DNA from: Rozella allomycis CSF55
Taxonomy: Eukaryota
DNA: 32,909 bases
NCBI GenBank assembly: GCA_000442015.1
Contig: KE561144.1
Span: forward strand, 1-32,909
Reading direction: 5' to 3'
Shown here piece after piece: positions 1 through 32,909 of the stretch (position 1 is its first letter; each line of letters opens with the position of its first letter). The notes below the pieces were generated by a model that was given only the letters and a program-made list of their open reading frames with translations, was not told the DNA's origin and made no database searches. A program made the translations under genes and the position numbers.

Positions 1-805
1 CGCGGCGAGGTTTGAGTGGTTGTTGTGGATGTGGACAAGTGACATAAGTGTGACCAGCTGAGCGGCAATTCTTGCAAAAACAGTACTGAGATTTGCCAGG
101 AACGTACCAGAGAGGGCGATGACTGCAATGTTGGCTTGTGTGATTCTTGAGATGACAAATGTCACACCCACCGGGAGGTGGTGCGGGGATGGAATTATAA
201 GCTTGATCAGGCAGGTTCGGAGTCATGGATTTCTTGAACTTCAATTCAGCCTCTTGTGCTTCGTCTTTGAGTAAACGTAACAGGGTGGTTAAAGATTGCA
301 AGTGAGACGGTTGACCCTTGAAGTGATACACCAGGGGTTTGTAGTGTTCAGAGAGACTGGACAGAATTGTTTGGACAATGGAGTCGTCATCAAGATGGTC
401 ACCACTTCTTCTTAATTCGAGCAACAGCGATTCAAGTTTCTGGACAAAATCAGGCAAGGTTTCATGAGTGTCAAAAGTGAGCGCCAAAAATTTTCGGCGA
501 GCGTGGAGTTGCACAGCATGTCTAGTGGGAGCAAATTCATCAGCTAACAGTTGCTATGCTTCCCAGAGAGAGGTACAGCGTTCGATTTTTGGCTTGATGA
601 AGTCATTGACAGCGAGCTTGAGTTTGGCGAAAGCTTTCTTGTGGATAGGAATGGTTTCTTTGGTCAATGGATAGGGTGCGGATGTTAAGTAAGTGTCGAG
701 ATCCAATTCTTCAAGGATTGATCGGAAATCAAGTGCCCATGTGTGGTAATTGGTGGTCTCTCTCAGTTTCTTGATTCGCGTGGAAGAGGTTTCAGTATTG
801 CTCAT
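1..805 (-). mobile_element. Ty1/copia-type gag, 5' part of element, with in-frame premature stop; runs off the window edge
   Basis: The N-terminus KLRETTNYHTWALDFRSILEELDL is copia-gag-like. The frame continues past TAG at 554-556 (SLWEA*QLLADEFAP...FVQKLESLLLELRRSGDHLDDDSIVQTILSSLSEHYKPLV) to two CX2CX4HX4C knuckles, CDICHLKNHTSQHC (~125-166) and CKNCRSAGHTYVTC (~35-76). Confidence 0.88.
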
Positions 806-3314: not shown

Positions 3315-3549
3315 NGATCTCTAAAACCCACAACCCCAACAATGTTAAAATGACAAATTCAAAATTTTGCATGAAATTTCCAGGTACTCTTTTGCAGAGG
3401 CAAGACTTTCGGCAGTGACGTTCCAACGGAGCCNAACGGAGCCAAAGTAATTGCTAGTTGAAAACTAACATTTCCAACGTGCTGTTTGGAGCAATCTAAA
3501 CGGCAATTTTTGGCGACTCTTCTCGAGTCTACTTTTGTAAAAATGGCAA

Positions 3550-3894: not shown

Positions 3895-3959
3895 CCCTTT
3901 TATAGAATGGAATAAAAGTATACAATATTTTATAAGTGACTTTGAGAACCCTGGTGGCA

Positions 3960-6900
3960 ATGTCAAAGGAAAATATTTTTCTACCCAATTCACCACTGTA
4001 TGGTCGCTTAAAAGTACGGCCGCTTATTCCACAAAGTCCTACTCTGAGAAAAACGCTTATGCAGGACTTTATGCCTGCTTCCGAGCCAGACGATTCTATG
4101 CAAGTTATGCTAGTTGAATGGATAAACCAAGAGATAGCAAACGACTATAAGTCGAGCACTAGATTAGAGTATTTGAGGCCTATTTTTAAGACAATTTATG
4201 AAAAGGAGCGAGGTGTTCTTGAAAACTTGAAAAGGGAAATTGACCAAGGAAGATTGAGTTTTAAAAAGGGGTTAGATTTTTCTAGTGATATTGGATTGCG
4301 AGTGAAGATTATAGAGTTTATGATGAATGTGGAGGGGTTGTGGTTGGCAATGGCGTGTGAGGTGATTGGAGGGAAACGGTATGATGAAAGAGCGATTGAG
4401 AATATGCAAGGAGTGAATAATTTGTTGAGTGTAAAGAAAATTTGTTGTGTGAATGTAGGGAGTATTATTTCATTATGGTCAAACTTCATTGGATATTTTG
4501 TTTAATATGTTGGCTATTTTGTATATTGTTGATGTTTTTAAAAGGGATAGAAAGAGTAAACCAACTTTATTTAGAAAGGTAAAATTATTTGAATGAAATT
4601 TTATAGAATGCTTATTTCAAAAGTGTGAATGAGATGATTATTTTTCTTGGACCCATGTATATGCATGGAGAGGGAGATTTAAGGCGTCATTTATTGCATA
4701 TTGGGATGGAATTTAAATATAGTCAAACTTTTATTGATGAATATGAAATGAAGATTAACAATTTGGCTGTTGATTTGAAGGATGGGATTAGGCTTGTCAA
4801 GTTGATTTCGTTATTTTTGAAGAAGCCAGAGTTGATAAATAAGGTACAGGATCCGAGTAGTAATTCTTCCAAAGAAAGAAACATTTTGATAGTTTTAAAG
4901 GAAATGGACAAAGTAAAGGATGTGAAGCCTAAAGATATTGTTATGGGACATAAAGAAAAGACACTATCGTTACTTTGGAGAATGTTTTATGAATATAAAT
5001 TTCCAGTTTTAGTTAATAAGAATGAGTTGATAACGGAAGTGAATAGAATAAGAAGGAATTTTTCAAAAGAAGAAATTCCAGAGAATAAAGTTGGATTATT
5101 TTTTCAATCTGAAGAATTGTCTTTATTGTTTGAATGGGTCAAAATTATTTGTGAAAAATCGGGAATTACAATTCACAATTTCACGAGTTCATTTTCTGAT
5201 CTTTCATGTTTTTGTTTGATTGTTTCTTTTTATTTATTAAATTTAGATAAAAATAAAATTAAATATCTTTGTTTGGAAAGAAAAAGACAAATTTTAGGAC
5301 AGCAGCCAACAAACAATGCATTTGTTAATGGAGGGTATTTTGCTGAATTTTCACCAGTAAGAAAAAAGACAAAAGGATTGGAAACGATCGTGAAAGAGAA
5401 TAATTTGAATTTGTTGATAAAAACATTAAAGAATTGTGATTCAATTATTTTAAATACAATAAATAAATTGCAAGAAGAAATGAATGAAAAAGTTGTGATT
5501 TCATTAATTTCATTTCTTTTTAATTTTCTTGTAAGACAAACAAACGCAGCGATTGTCATTCAAAACGCTTGGAGAAAACATTCAAATTTAAAACTTGAAA
5601 ATAAAATAGAAAAATGTTTTAATGAATTGAAAAGTTTAATAAAAATGAATTTATTGAAATGTAAAATGAAAAATGAATTGAAACTTGAAAAGGAAAAGAT
5701 TGAGAGAATAATTTCAATTCAGATCTTGATAAGAAAAAAGTTGATGACAGAAAAGAGAAAAAGTGAAATTAATAAAATTAATGCGATTAAAAGTTTGATA
5801 AAAATGAAATTGATTAAACAAAAGAAAATGAATTTATTGTCTTTTATTTGTACCACTCAATCTTTAATAAAGAAATCAATTCAATTAGAAAAGAAAAAGA
5901 AACAAATAAAAACAATAAATGAATTTAAAAGTTTAATTAAAAGATTTATTATTGTTAAAAGTCAAAGAAATACTCTACAATCAATTGTTTCTATTCAATG
6001 CTTAATTAAACGCAATTTACAACAAAGAAACAATCATAATTTAAAGAATAAAATCATTTCCTTTCAAAGTCAAATTAAAAGAGTTTTAATTAAATCTAAA
6101 ATTTCTTTGTTTGTTAATGCAATAAACGATCTACAGGGGCCAATAAAGATGCGCTTAGCCACACAAAGATTTACAGATTCTAAAAATAGAATTATTCAGA
6201 TTCAATCTTTAATTAGGAAAAATATTCATCTAAATGAAAAAAATATTCATCTTGAAAATGAATTAAAAAAGAAAAAAGTTTCAACAATCATCCAATCTTT
6301 TGTTAGAAGATCTATTGCATTACACAAAACAAAATCTTTAAAGAATAATTTAATAAATCTTCAAAGTCTTTTAAAAAGAAATATTGTATTTCTGAAATAT
6401 CAAAATGGAATTAAATCTATTGTTTTAATTCAAAATTTATCAAAGAGATTTTTAGTCTTGAATGAAACAAGAAATGAAAAAAGATTAATTCATCTTCAAT
6501 CTTTAATAAAAAGAAAATTACTAATTCATAAACATAAATTATTCTTTGAGAGTTTAACTACAATTCAATGTTTGATTAAGAGAAATTTGTCTGTTAAACT
6601 TGGACAACGCAAAGTTGAATCTATTTTAACAATTCAAGCGTTCGTTAGAAGAATTAATGTTCAAATACTCATTAAAAATCAAACTTTAATCTCCAAACAA
6701 AAGAGTCTTGATGAAAATGAGGCAGCATTAAAAATACAAAGATTATGGAAAGGATTTCAAGTGAGAAAATCTCTCAGTTCAAAACATGAAAATATCAAAA
6801 ACAATATTATAAAATTATCAAAAGATTCAAATGAAGAAATGAAATTGTGCAACAGAACTCAAAAGGCTCTCGATTTATTATCTTCAAGTCCAAGTCTTTC

Positions 6901-7363
6901 AGTTGTTCTCCAATCTTGTTTTCATTTAGAAGCAGCTACTCTTTGGTCATTTGACTGCGCTTTAAAATTACTAAACGCTAATGTTGTTTTAAAATTATAC
7001 AATCTCATCCAATCTTGCAATCGATCTCCCCCTCATCAAGAAATAATGTCACATTGCTTCAAAGTTATGCTCAACATCTCTAATCATCCAATCTTACTCT
7101 CTCAACTCTGCTCCCAAATAGCCTCTCTTTCTCCTCTCATTGACATTTGCCAAAACAATAAAGATAACCTCAACCTTTTAGAAAACGCTCTATTGTTGCT
7201 CTTCTCCATTTACAAATTTTATCCAAAAGAATCTCAAATTCTTTCATTAAAATTAACAAGAATAAAATCATTTATTGAAAAGGCTATGAAAAATGCTAAA
7301 AAATCAGAGTTTGCTCGGTACAGGAAACTTATCATTAAAATTAATTCAATTATCAATAAATAA
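3960..7363 (+). CDS. ASPM: Abnormal spindle/ASPM homologue (calponin-homology domains, IQ-like array, armadillo-like C-terminus)
   Basis: Motifs GEGDLRRHL, NLAVDLKDGIRL, DIVMGHKEKTLSLLW, NFTSSFSD, AALKIQRLWKGFQVRK, KLCNRTQKAL and LIQSCNRSPPH. Two 28-nt GT-AG introns (4431-4458, 4579-4606) join the ORF-track pieces in frame (TLFRK|NAYFKS). Confidence 0.92.
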
Positions 7364-18518: not shown

Positions 18519-21500
18519 ATGCAATTGCCTGAACCAAAAGAAGTGCTATCACGCCGTACATCTGCGGTGGGTTCTAAGCGTCCAAGCCTTGACCGTAGGA
18601 TGTCATTTATTAACACTCCTATTCGCCCAGGCAATACCCGCCGAGGTTCTTTGACGCCATCAGCAATCATGAATTCTATACCGCGTCCAATTTCATCTAG
18701 ACGCGAGTCTGTATATTCAACAACGACAGGAAAATCTCGTACGTCCTCTATGGATATTAAGGAAAATAGAGACAGCCATTTCGCCCCTCCATCAATGAAT
18801 GGTGAGGATAAGATCATGGAAGATGTCGAGGAGAGCAATACGGAATTATCGCCAACTGAAATTATTAAAAAAGCTATTCAGGAAGCTTCTTTGAAAGGAA
18901 ATGAGTTGCAGATATTGGATTCTAAAATTGATGCGGTATAGATCTTAATAAGATGGGAGTAGATGATCGAAGAAGTAAATAGTTTGCTTAAAGCTAGAAT
19001 GGATAACTCAATGCCTCTTGATACTAACAAGTTTAAGTTGCCCATTTTACAGAATGGAAAGTAACATTTGATAGTCTCGGAAATTAGTTTGTTGACTTTA
19101 ATTCAATACAAAGACAAGAGACAAGAATATTTAAATCTTCTGAGCTCCGTTTCTTTCACAGTGAAAAGCCCTGAGCTAACTCAAACGATTCTTGAAGAGG
19201 TGAAAATTTGTAAAGTAATAAATTAGCTGGAGCAAGTATGGAATATTGACATAAATATAAATTCTGAAAAGATGGTTGAAATTCTCTCTAGTTTTTACTA
19301 TTCTCGAGCAATGGAGTTGGCTGAGACGTCAAAACTGCTGTTGTCTAGATGGTCTAGATATAATAAGAGTTCAAAGACAGTTACGCAGCTTTATAATGTA
19401 TTCAGTATGGCCCAAGAAGAGATAACACATGAATATTCGGAGATGGTGACCCGATATGAGCGAATGCAACAAATAATAGAGTGGAGAGAGTTTCAAAGCA
19501 ACCAAACAGAGATGAAAGGAGTGGTGAAAGATGTGGTTATGTATTCGCTTAATGTGGGAGAAGAAGAAGACTGGAGTGCAGAAGACATTGGCATAATGAT
19601 AAGATGGATGACTGGATGGGTAAACGGGAAAAAGAAAATGACGTATTTGAAGAATTTTGCATGCAATGTAGCTGATCATCCGAGAGATCAATTGATTAAA
19701 GAATATTGTAAATTGAGCTGTACATTGAGTCCAGAAGTGAATAGTGATGAGAATGAGATTTTTGGCAGTAACATGAGAAGAAATAATGTTCCAATGAAAA
19801 AGACATGTTTGAGTGATTTCATTGACGAATTTCAAGAATATGCAACTGAATTTAAGTTAGAATCTGACATAGAATTTGAGGATGGGCATACACTGGAATA
19901 TGAAACAAGAAAGTATGCAATGAGTGAATTCAAGAAGCACTTAAAGCAAATGGGCGTGGATTTGAATAAGAGGAAGTATGTTAATAATAAGAAATTGAAG
20001 CAACTTGGATTTGACTCTGATGATGAAAAGAGTGATGATGATGAAGAAAAGAGGAATGTCGAGTATTTCCCATTGATTTGCAAGTCAGAATGGTTGAAAG
20101 ATCCTAGTTTGGTCCCCAAGTTGAGCGTAAATGAAGAAGAGAGAATTGTGAGACTAAAGAAACTAAGCTTGATAGACTTTGAGCTGAATAATCAATTGGA
20201 TCTATTAAAGAGCACAAATTTTGAAGAATTTGAGGAAAAGATGGTAATGAGACTGTATAAATATTTTTTAGCAAGGACATTTAAAAATATTCATGGAAGA
20301 GAATGGATTTAAATTTAATAAGAAAAACTTGGAAGAAAAGCAAAAGACGGAAATTGTTAATTTAGGAGATATTAGAACTGCATCGGAATCTATTAATGGA
20401 AGAAGAAATTTAGCTTTCCAAAAGCAAAATGAAGATGAATTAAAAGATATTGATCAAGTAAATTAAACTTGATTGGATAAAAAGATCCCATTGAGTGAAA
20501 TATTTAATGAAAATGATATCCAGTCCTTTATGCAACTGAGATTTGTAAAACTGAGAAAGGAAAGGGAAAAATTACTGTTCTATTTGAATTTCATGAGATC
20601 TATTGAAAAAAGAATTTGCTTGGATGTAAAAATTCAAAGGTTTATTAAGAAGGTTTCCCATGCGAGAGAAATGACTCGAGTCAAGTTTTCAAATTCAAAT
20701 GAAACAAATGTGAAGATCAATTTAAGTGGATTATTTCCAAATGCTCAAAAGAGAGAGTTACCAAGATTGGATGAATTAGAAATAAATAAGTCCATGAGTG
20801 TAGATTCTATTGAAGAACATGAAGATTATCGCTTTAAAGAAAATGATTTTGTAGAGGTCAGGTAGTTTATATTTCTATGAATTCTTTAAGAGATAAAAAG
20901 GGTAGAAAGATTTTGTATGACGTGGCCTTTGATGATCTACAAAAGATTGAAAATGAAATGCTAATTTTGATAACTTTCTATTTAAAAGAAAGAGATGACG
21001 AAGATGACGACATTGTTCAGATTAAGAAAAATTCAATGAAAAAGAGTAAACGTTTTACAAAAAAGACAAAAGGGAATAACGACGTTGCCTATTTAGATAG
21101 AAAATATGATAGAATTCAAGCATTAATAGACATGTACTCTATTCAAAATAAGATTCAATTGGAGAAAATAAATGTAAGAAATCTTAGATGTGAATGTAAT
21201 TATAGTTTATGTTAACAATGATGGATGTTTATGAGCATTCAATAAACCTTACTGATAAAGAAGAAATTGGCCAATTCATTTTGAACATAATGGTTGAGCC
21301 ATTAAATATTGATTATAAAGCTAAATACTTTTGTTCAAATATGATAATTCAAACCAAAGTGATGAAACTGAAACAGTCTTTCATTGAAAGTTTAATGTTT
21401 ACTCTTTCAGAAGATCAAAGACAATGGAGATATCAGCATGATTCTAAAGCTTTAATAAAATCGATGAAAAATGTTACTTCTGATTCTGTAATGTCTCTAG

Positions 21501-24500
21501 TTGGCGCTGGTTTGCCAAGAGTTATTGGTAATTCATTAATCTAGTTATTTCATTCTAGAAGCCTTTATTCCTTTGATGAAGCATTCTGATATAAATATTT
21601 CAATTGATATTTTAGAAATTGTAGAGCATGTTGGTGATATTGTCAATACATGCAAATTGCTAAACAAGAATGTGACGCAATTAATTGAATACATGAACAC
21701 AGTTAACAAAAACTTTAATCATAATCATCTTTTAATTGAATGGATTGTTTATAAATACGTTTTTGATTATTGGAATAATGAAATCAAAAATCTCTCATTT
21801 GATCAAGTTAAAGAAGTCAAAAAGGCAAAAGGATTCGAGTCTAAAAGTCACCACAGTCAGAATTCCGCAAGTAACACTCACGGACATTTACAATCACATT
21901 CCTCTTATACTAGTAATAGCAATAACCACGGTCACTTGCAATCCCACTCTTCTTATTTGTCAAGTCATTCAAATATAAGTTCTTCACAAACAAATGCTTC
22001 TTCAAACAGAGTATTGATAGGTCTAGAATTGAACAATGTCTTTGAAAATCCGTTTGTTGCAGATATTGTGTTAACGAATAAGTATGGAGAAGAGTATGAA
22101 ATGAAGCAAGATGATCTATTTGACGTAGAAAAGAATTTGTATCATAGATTTAATGATCCATCATTTCAGGAGCAAGCCAAGGACACTTTGTTGGAATTGC
22201 TAAAGATATTAATTCAACGATGGAAATTGATAGTCTCATTTCACAGTACAGAGACATTTAAAACCCTTATTTTGAAACAAGAAAAGCAAATGGGGTTTTC
22301 AAAAGATTCTATGCTTGTTAGAGGATATGAAAGTTTGCCACTTGGAAGAAACAACTATGATTCGGACTATTTAATCAAAATGTATAAAATGATGGAAGGT
22401 GAAGAGGAGGAAGATGAAAATAAAATGACATTTCTGTTTCATGAACCTTGTATTCCATTCAGGAAATTAGCAATCAATGATTTTGATGATTCGTTATTGA
22501 GTCTCAAATTCAGAAATTTCGACGATCTTGTTGAATCAATTAATGACCCTTTGCATTTAAAAATTTTAACGAGAGCAATTAAATTACAATTAATGGAAAG
22601 ATCCATTTGCTTCCTGAAATTAATTAGCAACAGTTTACTACTTATTAATCAAGATTTCATTCATGACTTTTTTAAAGAGAATTTCAACAATCAATTGGAA
22701 CTGAAAAGACTTGGATTTAATTCAATAGAAGAAATGAACAACTTTGATCTTTTGCATGATTATCCCATTCCAGAATATAAAGATTGTACTTTTACTGCAA
22801 TTCAAAAAAAGAATTTATTAAGAAAGCAAATTGTTTATCATTTTTCAAAGAATTATTATCAATACATTGAACTGAAATACACTCCAGAGAAAGCATTCCG
22901 TAGTATGATTCCGCTGAAATTAGAGTTGATGGATTGGTTCCACCAAAATATGCAAGAAACTATTATTGAAGCGTCGGATAGAATTCAGTTGTCTTTTCTA
23001 TTATTTATTCTAAATTCTCTGTCAAAGGAAACTATTCTGGGAAAGTCTGTCTTCAAATTAGAAAATTACAATAATAAAAAGGAGCAAAATGATGATTTAA
23101 ATTTAGAAATTAAATTAGAAATTGCTTCAAACATTTTGACTCAACAGGTAACTTGCAATATATTATTGTTTACTTTTGGTAGTTGACGGAAAAGATGAAG
23201 AAATTTTCCAGTTGTGGGAATTACCGAATGAATTCAATGTCCTTTCTGTTCCATTCAATGATGTTATTGTGCCTTTCAGAGAATTTAAATTGTTTAATCG
23301 CTCCAAATACGAAAAAATGTTTAAAGTTTATTCGTTTATAAATGATTTATTGAACATTGTAATGTTCTTTACGAGACTGATGAATTCTTTCAAGAAGACT
23401 ACCATTCAATCTAGAGCAGGTATTAAAATTATTGGTATGTGAAAGGTTTGGAAGCAAGGGATTATGATTCAGTGGTTGGTTTCATGACTGGATTGAAAAG
23501 GGACTTGAATAGTCTTGGAAATCCATTAAGCTATGAAAAACTATTTTCGTTTCTTAAACTTAAATATGAATTATTGTTTCTCAAACTAAGAGGTGTATTT
23601 GATAGAGTTCATGAACATTTTAAACAAAATAACGTAACTAGAAAGAACTATTAGAAATTAGAACTTTCATGGCGCCAGATTACTTTTGCGCAAGTTGAAT
23701 CACTTTGATCAAAAATATTACAATAATTTTTCATTTTTGAATAATGAATTATATTTTAACCCTATAAATGTTAATTCAGACTTTATTAAGAGTGATGCCA
23801 TTCTTTACCTTTTAACGAATGAAGACAAGAGATTCCTTTACACCAAAACATCTGAAGTAATTCCCTTTAATTTTTGATACAAAAGTTTGATTATTCGCTT
23901 GATCAATTCAATTCTGTTGGAATTTCAACAGACAACCCCATTGACACTTTGAAAAACCAAATGGACTATTTGACAGCAAACGTTAAATTGGTCCACTTGA
24001 GAAAAGAATTCTTTAGATTGTATCATTTGCAAAATCCTCTTCTAGGCGATTCCAAAGCACATTTGAATTTGTACACGTCCAAAATATTGATACCTGCAAT
24101 TGCAACTTATCAAAGATATGGAAGCAAAGGAAATGCATCGGAAACATATTTATTAAGAAATGATTGGCTGAATGATCCACCCTCAACTCAACATTATTTT
24201 AACAGAGTCGCCCAGATTCAATTTGATCGATGCCAAGCAATGGTTCTGCAAGATGAGATTTCTTGTCAGTACACAGTGTTCTTTCACAATTACGTTCAAA
24301 AATTGTATGAAAATCTGCAACAAGAGTTATCTGGGCGCCTATTCAAATTACAATNGTTATCTGGGCGCTTATTCAAATTACAATCAATTGTGCAAATTAA
24401 TCCTTTGTCTTTTGATTCAACAAGTGGATACGCATTATCGGAAAACGATGCTCAAGCGAAAAATTCAATAATTAATAAATTTATTCAGCAAATTAAAACC

Positions 24501-26221
24501 GCTGAACAAGCTGTCTTGCCGCTAGACAAAAGCAATAACCCCGATGTGTATTCTGTGTCAAAGCCATTGTTGAATCAAGCGGTAAATAAATTAAAGTTTT
24601 ATAAAAGTTATTTAATCTTGGGGCATCTTTAAGCAAATGGCAACAATTTAAAGTCAAGGAGAGAAGCACTTATTCCTTGGCATTGTTTCAGAGATTAATG
24701 GCAATGCTTGAAAGTAAAGATGAACAAATCAATATGCTTGAAAACACAATAAGGAATATTTGGAATGATTTCGACAGAAAAGTTAGAGTTGCTGGAGCTT
24801 ATGAAACTGCAGACATTCATATTGATTTGTCGACTGCCAACAACGAGTTAACCGAAATTAAAAAGCAAAGAAAAATTGACGTAAATTTTGTATTTCATTT
24901 TAAAAGGAAAAAAGAATCAAAGAAGAATTAATTGAAGAATATTCTGATCTGGTTAAAGAATTGCTAATGCAAGTTCAAGTGTTGGAGAACAGATTCAATG
25001 AATACAGGGAAAATTTATTTCATGAAACAATGATAATAATGTCTGATGCGAAAAAAGAACAAATGAGGGTACTTTGCTGCCTCGTGTTTAATAAATTTAG
25101 GTTCTTGCAGATGGAACAATTGACACAACAAAAATGGCCAAAAAGAAGGCCAAAGAACAGTTAGAAGCTGAAACCAAATTTCAGGACCTTTTGGAAGATA
25201 ACAATGAATTAAGATTAACAGTAAATACTCCTCCTTTGGATTAATAAGATTTCAAAGATGAGAACAATGCACGCGATAAAGGACATGGCTGTTAGAAATG
25301 TTTACGAAAGAAAAATTAATAAACTTTCTAAAGATTTGAAATTAACCGAAGAGAAATTGTGGGAATGTTATAGAGACTCAGAAGCGAGAGAAAGAATACT
25401 AAAACGACAATTAAATAAAGCTCAAAAGGTAGTCACTTTGTTTCTAATATATTTAGTCTTGCGTTTTTGCTGAATCTGAAGTTGAAGAATTAAGAAAAAG
25501 ATTAAAAGATGAACATCGTGAAAAACAAACATTGACGAGGACCAAAATCACAGATGACGCCAAAATCAAGCAATTAAGCGAAAGAATTAAGAACTTGGAA
25601 AAATATGACGGTATCTATTTTAGATTCTATTTACTTAAAGGAATCGACGTTGATAATCTATTGATTCAAATTATGGAAAAGGATAAGCAATTAGATTCTT
25701 ACAGGATAGAAACAATGAGAAAGAAAGCTTACGAAAAAGCACAAGTAATTCATCAATATATTCTTAATTTCAGGAATCTAGGAATAAAATGCTAAGTAGC
25801 TCTTCAAAAAGCATGTTGTTTGCTGCTNATGCTTAGTAGCTCTTCAAAAAGCATGCTGTTTGCTGCTGCGTTAGGACACCTTCAAACTTTGGAATTCAAA
25901 TCAAATTCTAACATCGTCTCAAGCTCAGAGCAGGATCAAGAACAACAAAACAATCAATCTAAAGGTCTTCGTTTCGCTACAACTGCTGGTAACATTAAAT
26001 TTTGATTTTTAAAAGAATTCATCGCGCCTAGAGTCAAAACTACTTTCAGTGCTTCAACCGCTGCGACAAGACCTACAACTTCAAGTAGGCCAAGCTCTCT
26101 GGCTAAAAGTAAAAGAAAAGACTATCTATCCATTCTGCTTGAAAAGCCGACAGTCACTGCAACTAAATCTGAAAATATCGACGCGAAAGCCAAAATTAGA
26201 CCATTTACAGCCGCTAAATAA
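18519..26221 (+). CDS. Very large multi-exon coiled-coil protein, CCDC162/DUF4549-like
   Basis: Successive same-strand ORFs are separated by ~27-35 nt GT-AG introns. Segments YYSRAMELAETSKLLLSRWSRY...EYSEMVTRYERM, LRFVKLR...LNFMRSIEKRI and ILYDVAFDDLQKIENEML resemble CCDC162/DUF4549 as I recall it. Ends ...IRPFTAAK*. Confidence 0.7.
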
Positions 26222-27189: not shown

Positions 27190-27616
27190 TTATTGAGCTT
27201 GAACCTCAGGCATGGTAGTCTCAATGACATTTTCTGCAGGCACTTGTGGGGCGGCTTCTTTTGCTTCTATTGCCATTTCAATAGCTTCATTTTTCTCTTC
27301 TTGAACTGGGTCATTTGAATGAGTTAGCAAATACGATCCCAGAAATTGGCATCTATTTTTCAAATATAATGTAAATTATTACGGATTTAAGGGTCTCTCT
27401 TTTACAAGAATTTTCATACCTTCCGCTAGTATTGGCACAACAGTTTGATCTAAATATGAACGAATAGGCAACGCTTGAAGATTTTGGCGATTGAGCTTGA
27501 GAATTGCATCGCGATCCAACTCGGTGTTCTATGAATAAAGTATAACTATTTTTTACTTCAGGTTGAGATATGTCAGTTGTGGACTGTTGAAGAGTTGACA
27601 TGTCCTGTTCTGTCAT
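27190..27616 (-). CDS. DPY30: Dpy-30/Sdc1 motif protein (COMPASS subunit)
   Basis: [42 protein letters not shown] with two short introns. The correct frame is absent from the ORF track. Confidence 0.88.
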
Positions 27617-27648: not shown

Positions 27649-28731
27649 ATGAATCCTTTCCCCAAGATAGCTCTTGATGAGACTGAAAAAACTCGCGATC
27701 AAAAAGATATTATTAAACAATTCATAGAGAAAAATGCATGTGAAAGGATCGTTATTGTAACAGTAAGTATTTTAGGTGCGATTGATAGAGTGGAGGAACA
27801 ACGGTGCCTCTAGAGAAAAATATGGTGCGGTACCTGGACAATTTTTCTGCTGGTACACGAGGCGCTGTCTCAACTGAATATCCTTTTTGTTTTTTTCTAA
27901 AATATTAGACAGGTTCTCCTTAATTGGTTACATGGTTCCTTCGACACGATTATGCTGTTATATTCATGCATAGACATTACAGCCTTCAACCTTTCAGTCG
28001 ACACTTCACACATGCAACGAATTGCTTCTTAGATTTGTTGGATATTGAAGACCGTGATGAAGATATTAAAAGTAGAGTTGAATTCAATCCTATATATAGT
28101 CAAAAATCAATATGAAAGTCTGAAAAATATTTTAAAAGAATATCAAAGAGTAATGGACTATGTAATTAAGCAAAGGTTAAAGAAAGTGGAAAATTGTTAA
28201 TGGTGACCTATTCAACTGTTTTCGATTATCTAAGCATGCTGCGGCTTATAGCCGAATTTTTAGTCCCATATGATGCTCAGGCAATGTTTTACTTGGCGGC
28301 AGCTGTATCTGATTACTACATGCCGTTTGAAGACCTTCCACAGCATAAAATTCAGTCATCAAAAAACGGTCTTGAATTAAAGTTAACTTGTGTGCCCAAA
28401 ATTATAAAAGAAGTAGCTTCATTGTGCAAGAATTCTTACATTGTCACGTTCAAGGTAACTAAATCATTCAAGTATTTTGGAGCTAGAAACAGATCCGAGC
28501 CTACTCGATTCCAAGAGCGAAGAAGCGTTATCAAATTATGGACATCAAGCAGTCATTGGAAATATTTTAAGTCAAAGGAAAATGTCTGTAAATATTTATA
28601 GAAGAGATTATGACACCGTTAATATAACATTAGATGATTCTAAATTAGAGCAAAATACCGAGATTGAACAGCTAATTGTAGAAAAATTAATAGAATTTCA
28701 TACTAAATGGATTAATAGAAGTATTATTTAA
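27649..28731 (+). CDS. PPCS: Phosphopantothenate--cysteine ligase (Cab2/PPCS)
   Basis: [67 protein letters not shown] and TFK|LETD. Confidence 0.95.
27878..27931 (+). other. U12-type (minor spliceosome) AT-AC intron in PPCS, 54 nt
   Basis: 5' site ATATCCTTT, branch-point TTCTCCTTAAT at 27914-27924 and 3' TAC. Splicing gives GA|A = Glu, preserving STE-WFL. Retention hits TAG at 27906. Confidence 0.9.
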
Positions 28732-29128: not shown

Positions 29129-29130
29129 NG

Positions 29131-29541
29131 TTAGTCGGGATACTAATATTCACGTCTGTTAGGGGGTTACTGTTGCAATTAATTAAGGTAACATTGAATT
29201 ACTAAAACCAGTAGTTTTTCCGATCATACTCAAACCAAGAGCGCTCAGGAATAATGGTTCTATTTTCAGCACAAATAATGGGAATGTATTTTCTTTCTTC
29301 GGTTATCATGCTTCGCATGAATTTGCCTGCAGAATACAGGACGATCATAGTTGACGTTCTCTCGGACATAAAGTTTGACTTTTACCACAGATGGTTTGAC
29401 GTTATATTTCTGATATCAGCTGTGACGTCTGTAATTATAATATATGTGAATCAAAGCAAGTCAACAATAATCAAATAAAGCTAATTTAATGGAATTGCAT
29501 TTATTTCTTATCAATTAAGTATTAATGACGTCAATTGCTTA
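29131..29541 (+). repeat. Near-identical inverted copy of the GPR89 3' end (matches 32458-32868); probable misplaced allelic contig
   Basis: 411-bp reverse-complement match with a few substitutions (e.g. ISAVTS vs ISALTS), lying between single n's at 29129 and 29542. Confidence 0.85.
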
Positions 29542-32384: not shown

Positions 32385-32520
32385 CAGAGGTAATATGACA
32401 AGGGTCTTTGATTAGCTAAGCCCTTTTATTGTCACCATCAGTAAAATTCAGAAATGATAAGCAATTGACGTCATTAATACTTAATTGATAAGAAATAAAT
32501 GCAATTCTATCAAATTAGCT

Positions 32521-32909
32521 TTATTTGATTATTGTTGACTTGCTCTGATTCACATATATTATAATTACAGACGTCAAAGCAGATATCAGAAATATAACGT
32601 CAAACCATCTGTGGTAAAAGTCAAACTTTATGTCCGAGAGAACGTCAACTATAATCGTCCTGTATTCTGCAGGCAAATTCATGCGAAGCATGATAACCGA
32701 AGAAAGAAAATACATTCCCATTATTTGTGCTGAAAATAGAACCATTATTCCTGAGCGCTCTTGGTTTGAGTATGATCGGAAAAACTACTGGTTTTAGTAA
32801 TTCAATGTTACCTTAATTAATTGCAACAGTAACCCCCTAACAGATGTGAATATAAGTATCCCGACTAAGGCGAAGGATATTTGTTGAGACCAAAATTGAA
32901 CGTCGAAAT
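32521..32909 (-). CDS. GPR89: Golgi pH regulator GPR89/GPHR, 3' end (continues beyond window)
   Basis: DVQFWSQQISFALVGILIFTSVRGLL, AQIMGMYFLSSVIMLRMNLPAEYRTII and FYHRWFDVIFLISA. Confidence 0.93.

Follow-up and report, generated by a model that had tools for sequence, protein, structure and literature searches.

A probable U12-type AT-AC intron in the phosphopantothenoylcysteine synthetase gene of Rozella allomycis

Results

A 54-nt segment at positions 27878–27931, within the gene for phosphopantothenoylcysteine synthetase (PPCS), an enzyme of coenzyme A synthesis, in the parasitic fungus Rozella allomycis, is very probably a genuine U12-type intron with AT-AC ends, of the class that is removed by the minor spliceosome. 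A genuine intron of this type implies a working minor spliceosome in Rozella, and we infer from this single intron that a functional one may persist in the organism. All positions refer to the window, the whole stretch of R. allomycis CSF55 DNA that was analysed (32,909 nt).

The PPCS gene and its introns

The homologue-guided model of the PPCS gene comprises six exons, whose joined 921-nt coding sequence has no internal stop and gives a product of 306 aa. The five introns measure 26, 54, 28, 26 and 28 nt in order; four of them are GT-AG and the second is AT-AC. The gene and the signals discussed below are as follows.

27649..28731, + strand: PPCS gene, from ATG to TAA, model built from the sequence
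27649-27762, 27789-27877, 27932-28071, 28100-28149, 28176-28454 and 28483-28731, + strand: PPCS exons of the homologue-guided model
27763..27788, + strand: U2-type mini-intron 1, GT-AG, 26 nt; its removal restores a 13-residue motif
27878..27931, + strand: probable AT-AC intron, 54 nt, with U12-type signals, phase 2, splitting the GA/A codon of an invariant Glu
27878..27886, + strand: predicted 5' splice site ATATCCTTT, a perfect 9/9 match to the U12-type consensus RTATCCTT(T)
27906..27908, + strand: in-frame TAG met on intron retention, in ORF 27789..27908
27917..27924, + strand: predicted branch-point box TCCTTAAT, an 8/8 match to TCCTTRAY
27930..27931, + strand: 3' terminal AC, read from the sequence, with the AT at 27878-27879
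28072..28099, + strand: U2-type mini-intron 3, GT-AG, 28 nt, from the gene model and alignment
28150..28175, + strand: U2-type mini-intron 4, GT-AG, 26 nt, from the gene model and alignment
28455..28482, + strand: U2-type mini-intron 5, GT-AG, 28 nt; its removal restores the motif SFKLETDPS

An earlier note on this DNA had named the gene as PPCS, and this identification is confirmed by a match of Pfam DFP (PF04127) to exon 5 (E 6.5e-07, 29.8 bits against a cut-off of 22) and by the alignment to homologues: PPCS proteins of fungi and animals align to the spliced 306-aa model over its full length. Exon 5 is 98% identical to a public R. allomycis CSF55 record annotated as "Phosphopantothenoylcysteine synthetase". 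The G+C content of the window, 28–40%, agrees with the 34% given for Rozella (PMC8042348). In a motif check the spliced model was found to carry all the invariant motifs, namely SGGT.V.LE, NFS.G.RG, LAAAVSD, HKIQS and FKLET. Seventeen residues that are invariant in an alignment of 12 PPCS sequences (alignment A1) are encoded upstream of the AT-AC intron, including those of SGGT.V.LE and NFS.G.RG, and the exons upstream of it are therefore part of a functional PPCS and not a separate ORF.

Signals of the AT-AC intron

U12-type introns have the 5' splice site consensus RTATCCTT(T), and their terminal dinucleotides fall into two classes, AT-AC and GT-AG, of which the PPCS intron shows the first. 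Between the branch-point box and exon 3 there are just 7 nt, TGGTTAC, with no polypyrimidine tract and no 3' AG. The candidate branch-point A, at 27922 or 27923, lies 9–10 nt ahead of exon 3, which is at the lower end of the spacing usual for U12-type introns, about 10–15 nt. The sequence of the segment, with its two boxes and the TGGTTAC that follows the second, is exactly as the earlier note had described it. After removal, the exon junction reads ...TCAACTGA joined to ATGGTTCC..., and the junction can be slid by 2 nt, an AT-AT intron at 27880–27933 giving an identical mRNA. Minor introns show a bias against phase 0 according to the text of a recent survey (PMC10639083), a bias that the phase 2 of the PPCS intron fits.

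We compared the occurrence of these signals with chance expectation. Taken alone, each of the two boxes is found in the 32.9-kb window at chance level, RTATCCTT at 3 sites (2.87 expected) and TCCTTRAY at 7 sites (6.54 expected). At neither of the two further RTATCCTT sites, 8990 (+) and 32880 (-), was a branch box found in the 200 nt nearby. The composite signal ATATCCTT-N10-40-TCCTTRAY-N4-12-AC occurs once in the window, at 27878–27931, and in none of 100 dinucleotide-preserving shuffles of the same window. This one occurrence coincides exactly with the break in the PPCS reading frame.

Boxes of this kind might also be found in a genome whose minor snRNAs have been lost, where the major spliceosome would take out the U12-like segment as an AT-AC intron of the U2 type, or where its removal would be inefficient. 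We consider this very improbable. It is favoured by the relationship of Rozella to Microsporidia, a sister lineage without minor snRNAs in the text of the survey concerned (PMC2396436). The Rfam search of the window, with gathering thresholds and with E up to 1, found the major U4 snRNA and no minor snRNA, a result that says little beyond these 33 kb. U2-type AT-AC introns carry 5' splice sites of the major type (ATAAGT-like) and polypyrimidine tracts, and would not carry ATATCCTT together with TCCTTAAT; moreover, the exactness of both boxes would be left unexplained without pairing to U11, U12 and U6atac. The U4 snRNA gene itself, at 3386–3527 (+), is full-length (Rfam RF00015, 71.9 bits, E 2.6e-14, model positions 1–138 of 138).

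Reading frame, homologues and the public gene model

When the intron is retained, the frame reads GAA TAT CCT ... TAT TAG and is stopped at 27906–27908, although 54 nt is a multiple of three; the N-terminal read-through ORF is 39 aa long. The earlier statement that retention terminates translation at 27906 is thus borne out, the TAG there being the end of ORF 27789..27908. In order to examine the junction, the PPCS model was aligned with 28 protein matches, 24 of which span the AT-AC site. The junction is gapless against 23 of these 24 homologues, and every one of the 24 shows Glu where the codon is split, in the column that is invariant (E65) in alignment A1.

None of the 28 protein matches is a full-length Rozella PPCS. 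The public R. allomycis PPCS record (P0001) has 210 aa, and its first residues, MHRHYSL, lie 11 residues past the AT-AC junction. A start downstream of the AT-AC intron is the outcome expected from a gene finder that accepts only GT-AG introns. P0001 also departs from the homologue-guided model at two later mini-introns, which it leaves in or splices wrongly. The two models differ within 28072–28482, around mini-introns 3, 4 and 5; ten other residues replace residues of exon 4 in P0001, and another 10-residue stretch is missing from it. Recognition of the AT-AC intron thus corrects a truncated public model, from which the N-terminal nucleotide-binding half of PPCS is missing. The public gene model lacks the intron, which would therefore be overlooked in a survey based on annotation. 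More generally, minor introns in compact genomes can escape gene finders that accept only GT-AG introns, and surveys that are tied to annotation or that drop very short introns can miss them as well.

The late start of the public model would also be seen if this PPCS copy were broken, as a pseudogene or through an assembly artefact, with the 54 nt as an unspliced insertion and the real product being the 210-aa C-terminal protein, or none. The assembly does contain single Ns, some of them with duplicated sequence alongside. We nevertheless give this reading a very low probability. Two correctly spaced U12 boxes, together with the exact restoration of an invariant codon, would not be expected of a random 54-nt insertion; the other PPCS exons and mini-introns are all intact; the gene contains no N, those closest to it being at 25828 and 29129; and a 210-aa product would miss the invariant N-terminal motifs.

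Alternative boundaries for the segment were enumerated as pairs of donors and acceptors of ten dinucleotide classes that keep the frame without a stop, giving 92 combinations. The only frame-keeping GT-AG pairs around the site are 27830–27973 and 27830–27982, and there are four frame-keeping GC-AG pairs, from 27806 or 27827 to 27973 or 27982. All six were rejected: they are 144–177 nt long, and each would cost the protein 30 or more conserved residues, the invariant DNFSxGxRG (DNFSAGTRG here) among them. The earlier remark that no GT-AG alternative could be found that preserves the frame thus needs a qualification, as two such pairs exist, and is right in substance, both of them deleting at least 30 conserved residues. 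The weakest of the readings considered, an AT-AC mini-intron of 30 nt at 27902–27931 that starts with ATATTAGA, shares the 3' end and adds eight residues (YPFCFFLK), keeps the frame without a stop and matches the local 26–30 nt length class, but it is exceedingly improbable, as its 5' end departs from the U12 consensus and from the local GTA... donors alike, none of the 24 site-spanning homologues has an insertion at that point, and the perfect ATATCCTTT 24 nt upstream of 27902 would be a coincidence. Removal of 27878–27931 is the only way to a homologue-like PPCS protein.

Miniature introns and intron length

A heuristic scan of the whole window collected GTA...NAG segments between open frames that they connect, each frame of 30 codons or more, and used the acceptor giving the shortest segment. 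It returned 205 candidates, whose lengths peak at 26, 27, 28 and 29 nt (11, 9, 12 and 5 candidates, respectively) over a flat background of 1–4 candidates per length bin outside the peak. Together with the four mini-introns of PPCS, this peak agrees with the earlier description of a genome with miniature U2-type introns. Across surveyed fungi, R. allomycis among them, the text of a comparative study gives median intron lengths of 29–197 bp (PMC8042348). Two other genes of the window were seen to be split by many mini-introns of 26–32 nt: one, at 3936–7363 (+), codes for an ASPM-like protein that has a CH domain and IQ repeats, and the other, at 19227–25795 (+), is a long gene of many exons that matches DUF4549 weakly.

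With 54 nt against a mode of 26–29 nt, the AT-AC intron is about twice the local U2 size, as had been noted before. The further suggestion that the minor spliceosome has a different minimal length is speculation: it rests on one intron, and shorter minor introns have been published, those of Blastocystis having a median of 39 bp (PMC10639083). The contrast between 54 nt and about 27 nt nevertheless leads to a testable idea on the length limits of the two spliceosomes, with one intron so far.

Conservation of the intron position

PPCS loci were retrieved from metagenome contigs, and the best 80 of 523 tblastn-confirmed matches were surveyed for an intron at the position of the AT-AC intron. None of these 80 loci has one, in a set that favours long uninterrupted, intron-poor or cDNA-like matches and so speaks only weakly against a shared position. 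Motif spacing showed 68 of the 80 to be uninterrupted, and six more were found to be so on reading by eye. The remaining six were flagged by the spacing test and consist of four read-through motif variants and two loci (L058 and L074) with a six-residue in-frame insertion.

Two protein records point in the other direction. In a sponge isoform (P0006), a 14-residue gap opens exactly after the Glu, as it would at an exon boundary, and a record from Rhizophagus clarus (P0009) is truncated 4 residues downstream of the junction. Rhizophagus is described as a genus rich in minor introns (PMC10639083). We take the gap and the truncation as hints, and only as hints, that the intron position might be shared.

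Discussion

The established U12 pathway is the basis for the mechanism that we propose for the PPCS intron. The U11/U12 di-snRNP would bind at once to ATATCCTTT at the 5' splice site and to the branch box, TCCTTAAT, after which U4atac/U6atac.U5 would join. The A at 27922 or 27923 would then attack the 5' splice site, and the exons would be ligated as ...ACTGA/ATGG..., rebuilding the codon of the invariant Glu and, with it, the N-terminal nucleotide-binding half of PPCS. Splicing of the RNA at the boundaries of 27878–27931 is presumed here from the DNA, as is the presence in Rozella of the four minor snRNAs and their proteins. A metatranscriptome run under the same species label yielded no contig on 27500–28800, a result that is neutral as to expression. 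An unspliced transcript would stop at the TAG after 10 extra codons, and we therefore propose that PPCS output depends on minor splicing. The stronger statement of the earlier note, that the intron gates an essential gene of CoA biosynthesis, is speculation that goes beyond the evidence from one intron.

Minor splicing in a rozellid is phylogenetically plausible because minor snRNAs have been found in other early-diverging fungi. The snRNA survey reports them from Zygomycota and from Chytridiomycota, with Allomyces macrogynus among the latter, but from neither Ascomycota nor Microsporidia (PMC2396436). Many non-dikaryan fungi were reported to have minor introns by Larue & Roy 2023 (PMC10639083), whose counts of U12-type introns include Rhizophagus irregularis (n = 205), Basidiobolus meristosporus (n = 249), Rhizopus oryzae (about 4) and Phycomyces (about 20). 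That study left out introns of less than 30 bp, and a label in a supplementary figure is the one place where its available text names R. allomycis (PMC10639083). The PPCS intron resembles the U12 introns of early-diverging fungi in being AT-AC, in not being phase 0 and in belonging to a non-dikaryan lineage. Rozella differs from those fungi in its placement in Rozellomycota, sister to the Microsporidia, which according to the survey text have no minor snRNAs (PMC2396436). Our search, which covered the full texts of papers, found no text on minor introns or minor snRNAs in Rozella or Rozellomycota and nothing that ties PPCS to minor introns.

Two further systems with very short introns offer a comparison. 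Blastocystis sp. subtype 1 is reported to have 253 minor introns, 77% of them AT-AC, with a median of 39 bp (PMC10639083). Rozella is like Blastocystis, in which minor introns are mostly AT-AC, in its compact genome and very short introns; unlike the single 54-nt case in Rozella, the minor introns of Blastocystis number in the hundreds and are shorter, so that 54 nt is not a general lower limit for minor splicing (PMC10639083). In Microsporidia, the text of an intron study describes most introns as about 23–30 nt, together with a few "long" ones of about 76 nt, in which the branch points are extended and splicing works better (PMC6349667). There too, a reduced genome has a rare intron that is two to three times longer than the miniature majority. 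However, the long microsporidian introns are described as GT-AG with extended U2-type branch points (PMC6349667), whereas the Rozella intron is AT-AC with U12 boxes.

The PPCS intron provides sequence-level evidence that minor splicing has been kept in Rozellomycota, unlike in the sister Microsporidia, where minor snRNAs are reported to be missing, and it would thereby narrow the timing of the loss of the minor machinery during reductive evolution. A wider proposal, which we regard as possible but doubtful, is that Rozella, flagellated and sister to Microsporidia, has retained the entire minor spliceosome to serve a few introns missed by annotation, and that its U12 introns stop shrinking at about twice the U2 size of about 27 nt, perhaps for the reason that the U11/U12 di-snRNP has to bridge the distance between the 5' splice site and the branch point in one step. 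If this were true, the loss of minor splicing would fall on the stem lineage of Microsporidia, later than its divergence from Rozella, and Rozella would be a natural system in which one could measure how small the geometry of the minor spliceosome can become.

Other features of the window

Several features of the surrounding sequence concern the assembly. Short tandem duplications, at 24305–24424 and 25745–25874, lie on both sides of single Ns (24355 and 25828) and look like unmerged contig overlaps. An inverted repeat of 411 nt (29131–29541 and 32458–32868, 98% complementary) encloses 2,916 nt with two genes, one kinase-like and one for a subtilisin that has I9 and S8 domains. Its first arm is flanked by single Ns, at 29129 and 29542, and the repeat may reflect either a true inverted duplication or an error of the assembly. 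At the start of the window, a gag fragment of a copia-type LTR retrotransposon (PF14223) is found at 2–553 (-), and a gap of 188 Ns (1860–2047) lies beside it.

The nearest neighbour of PPCS is a Dpy-30-motif gene on the opposite strand, at 27190–27616 (-), which has mini-introns of its own (Pfam PF05186, E 4.3e-09). Its ATG (27616–27614) is 32 nt from the PPCS ATG (27649), and the two genes form a very tight divergent pair.
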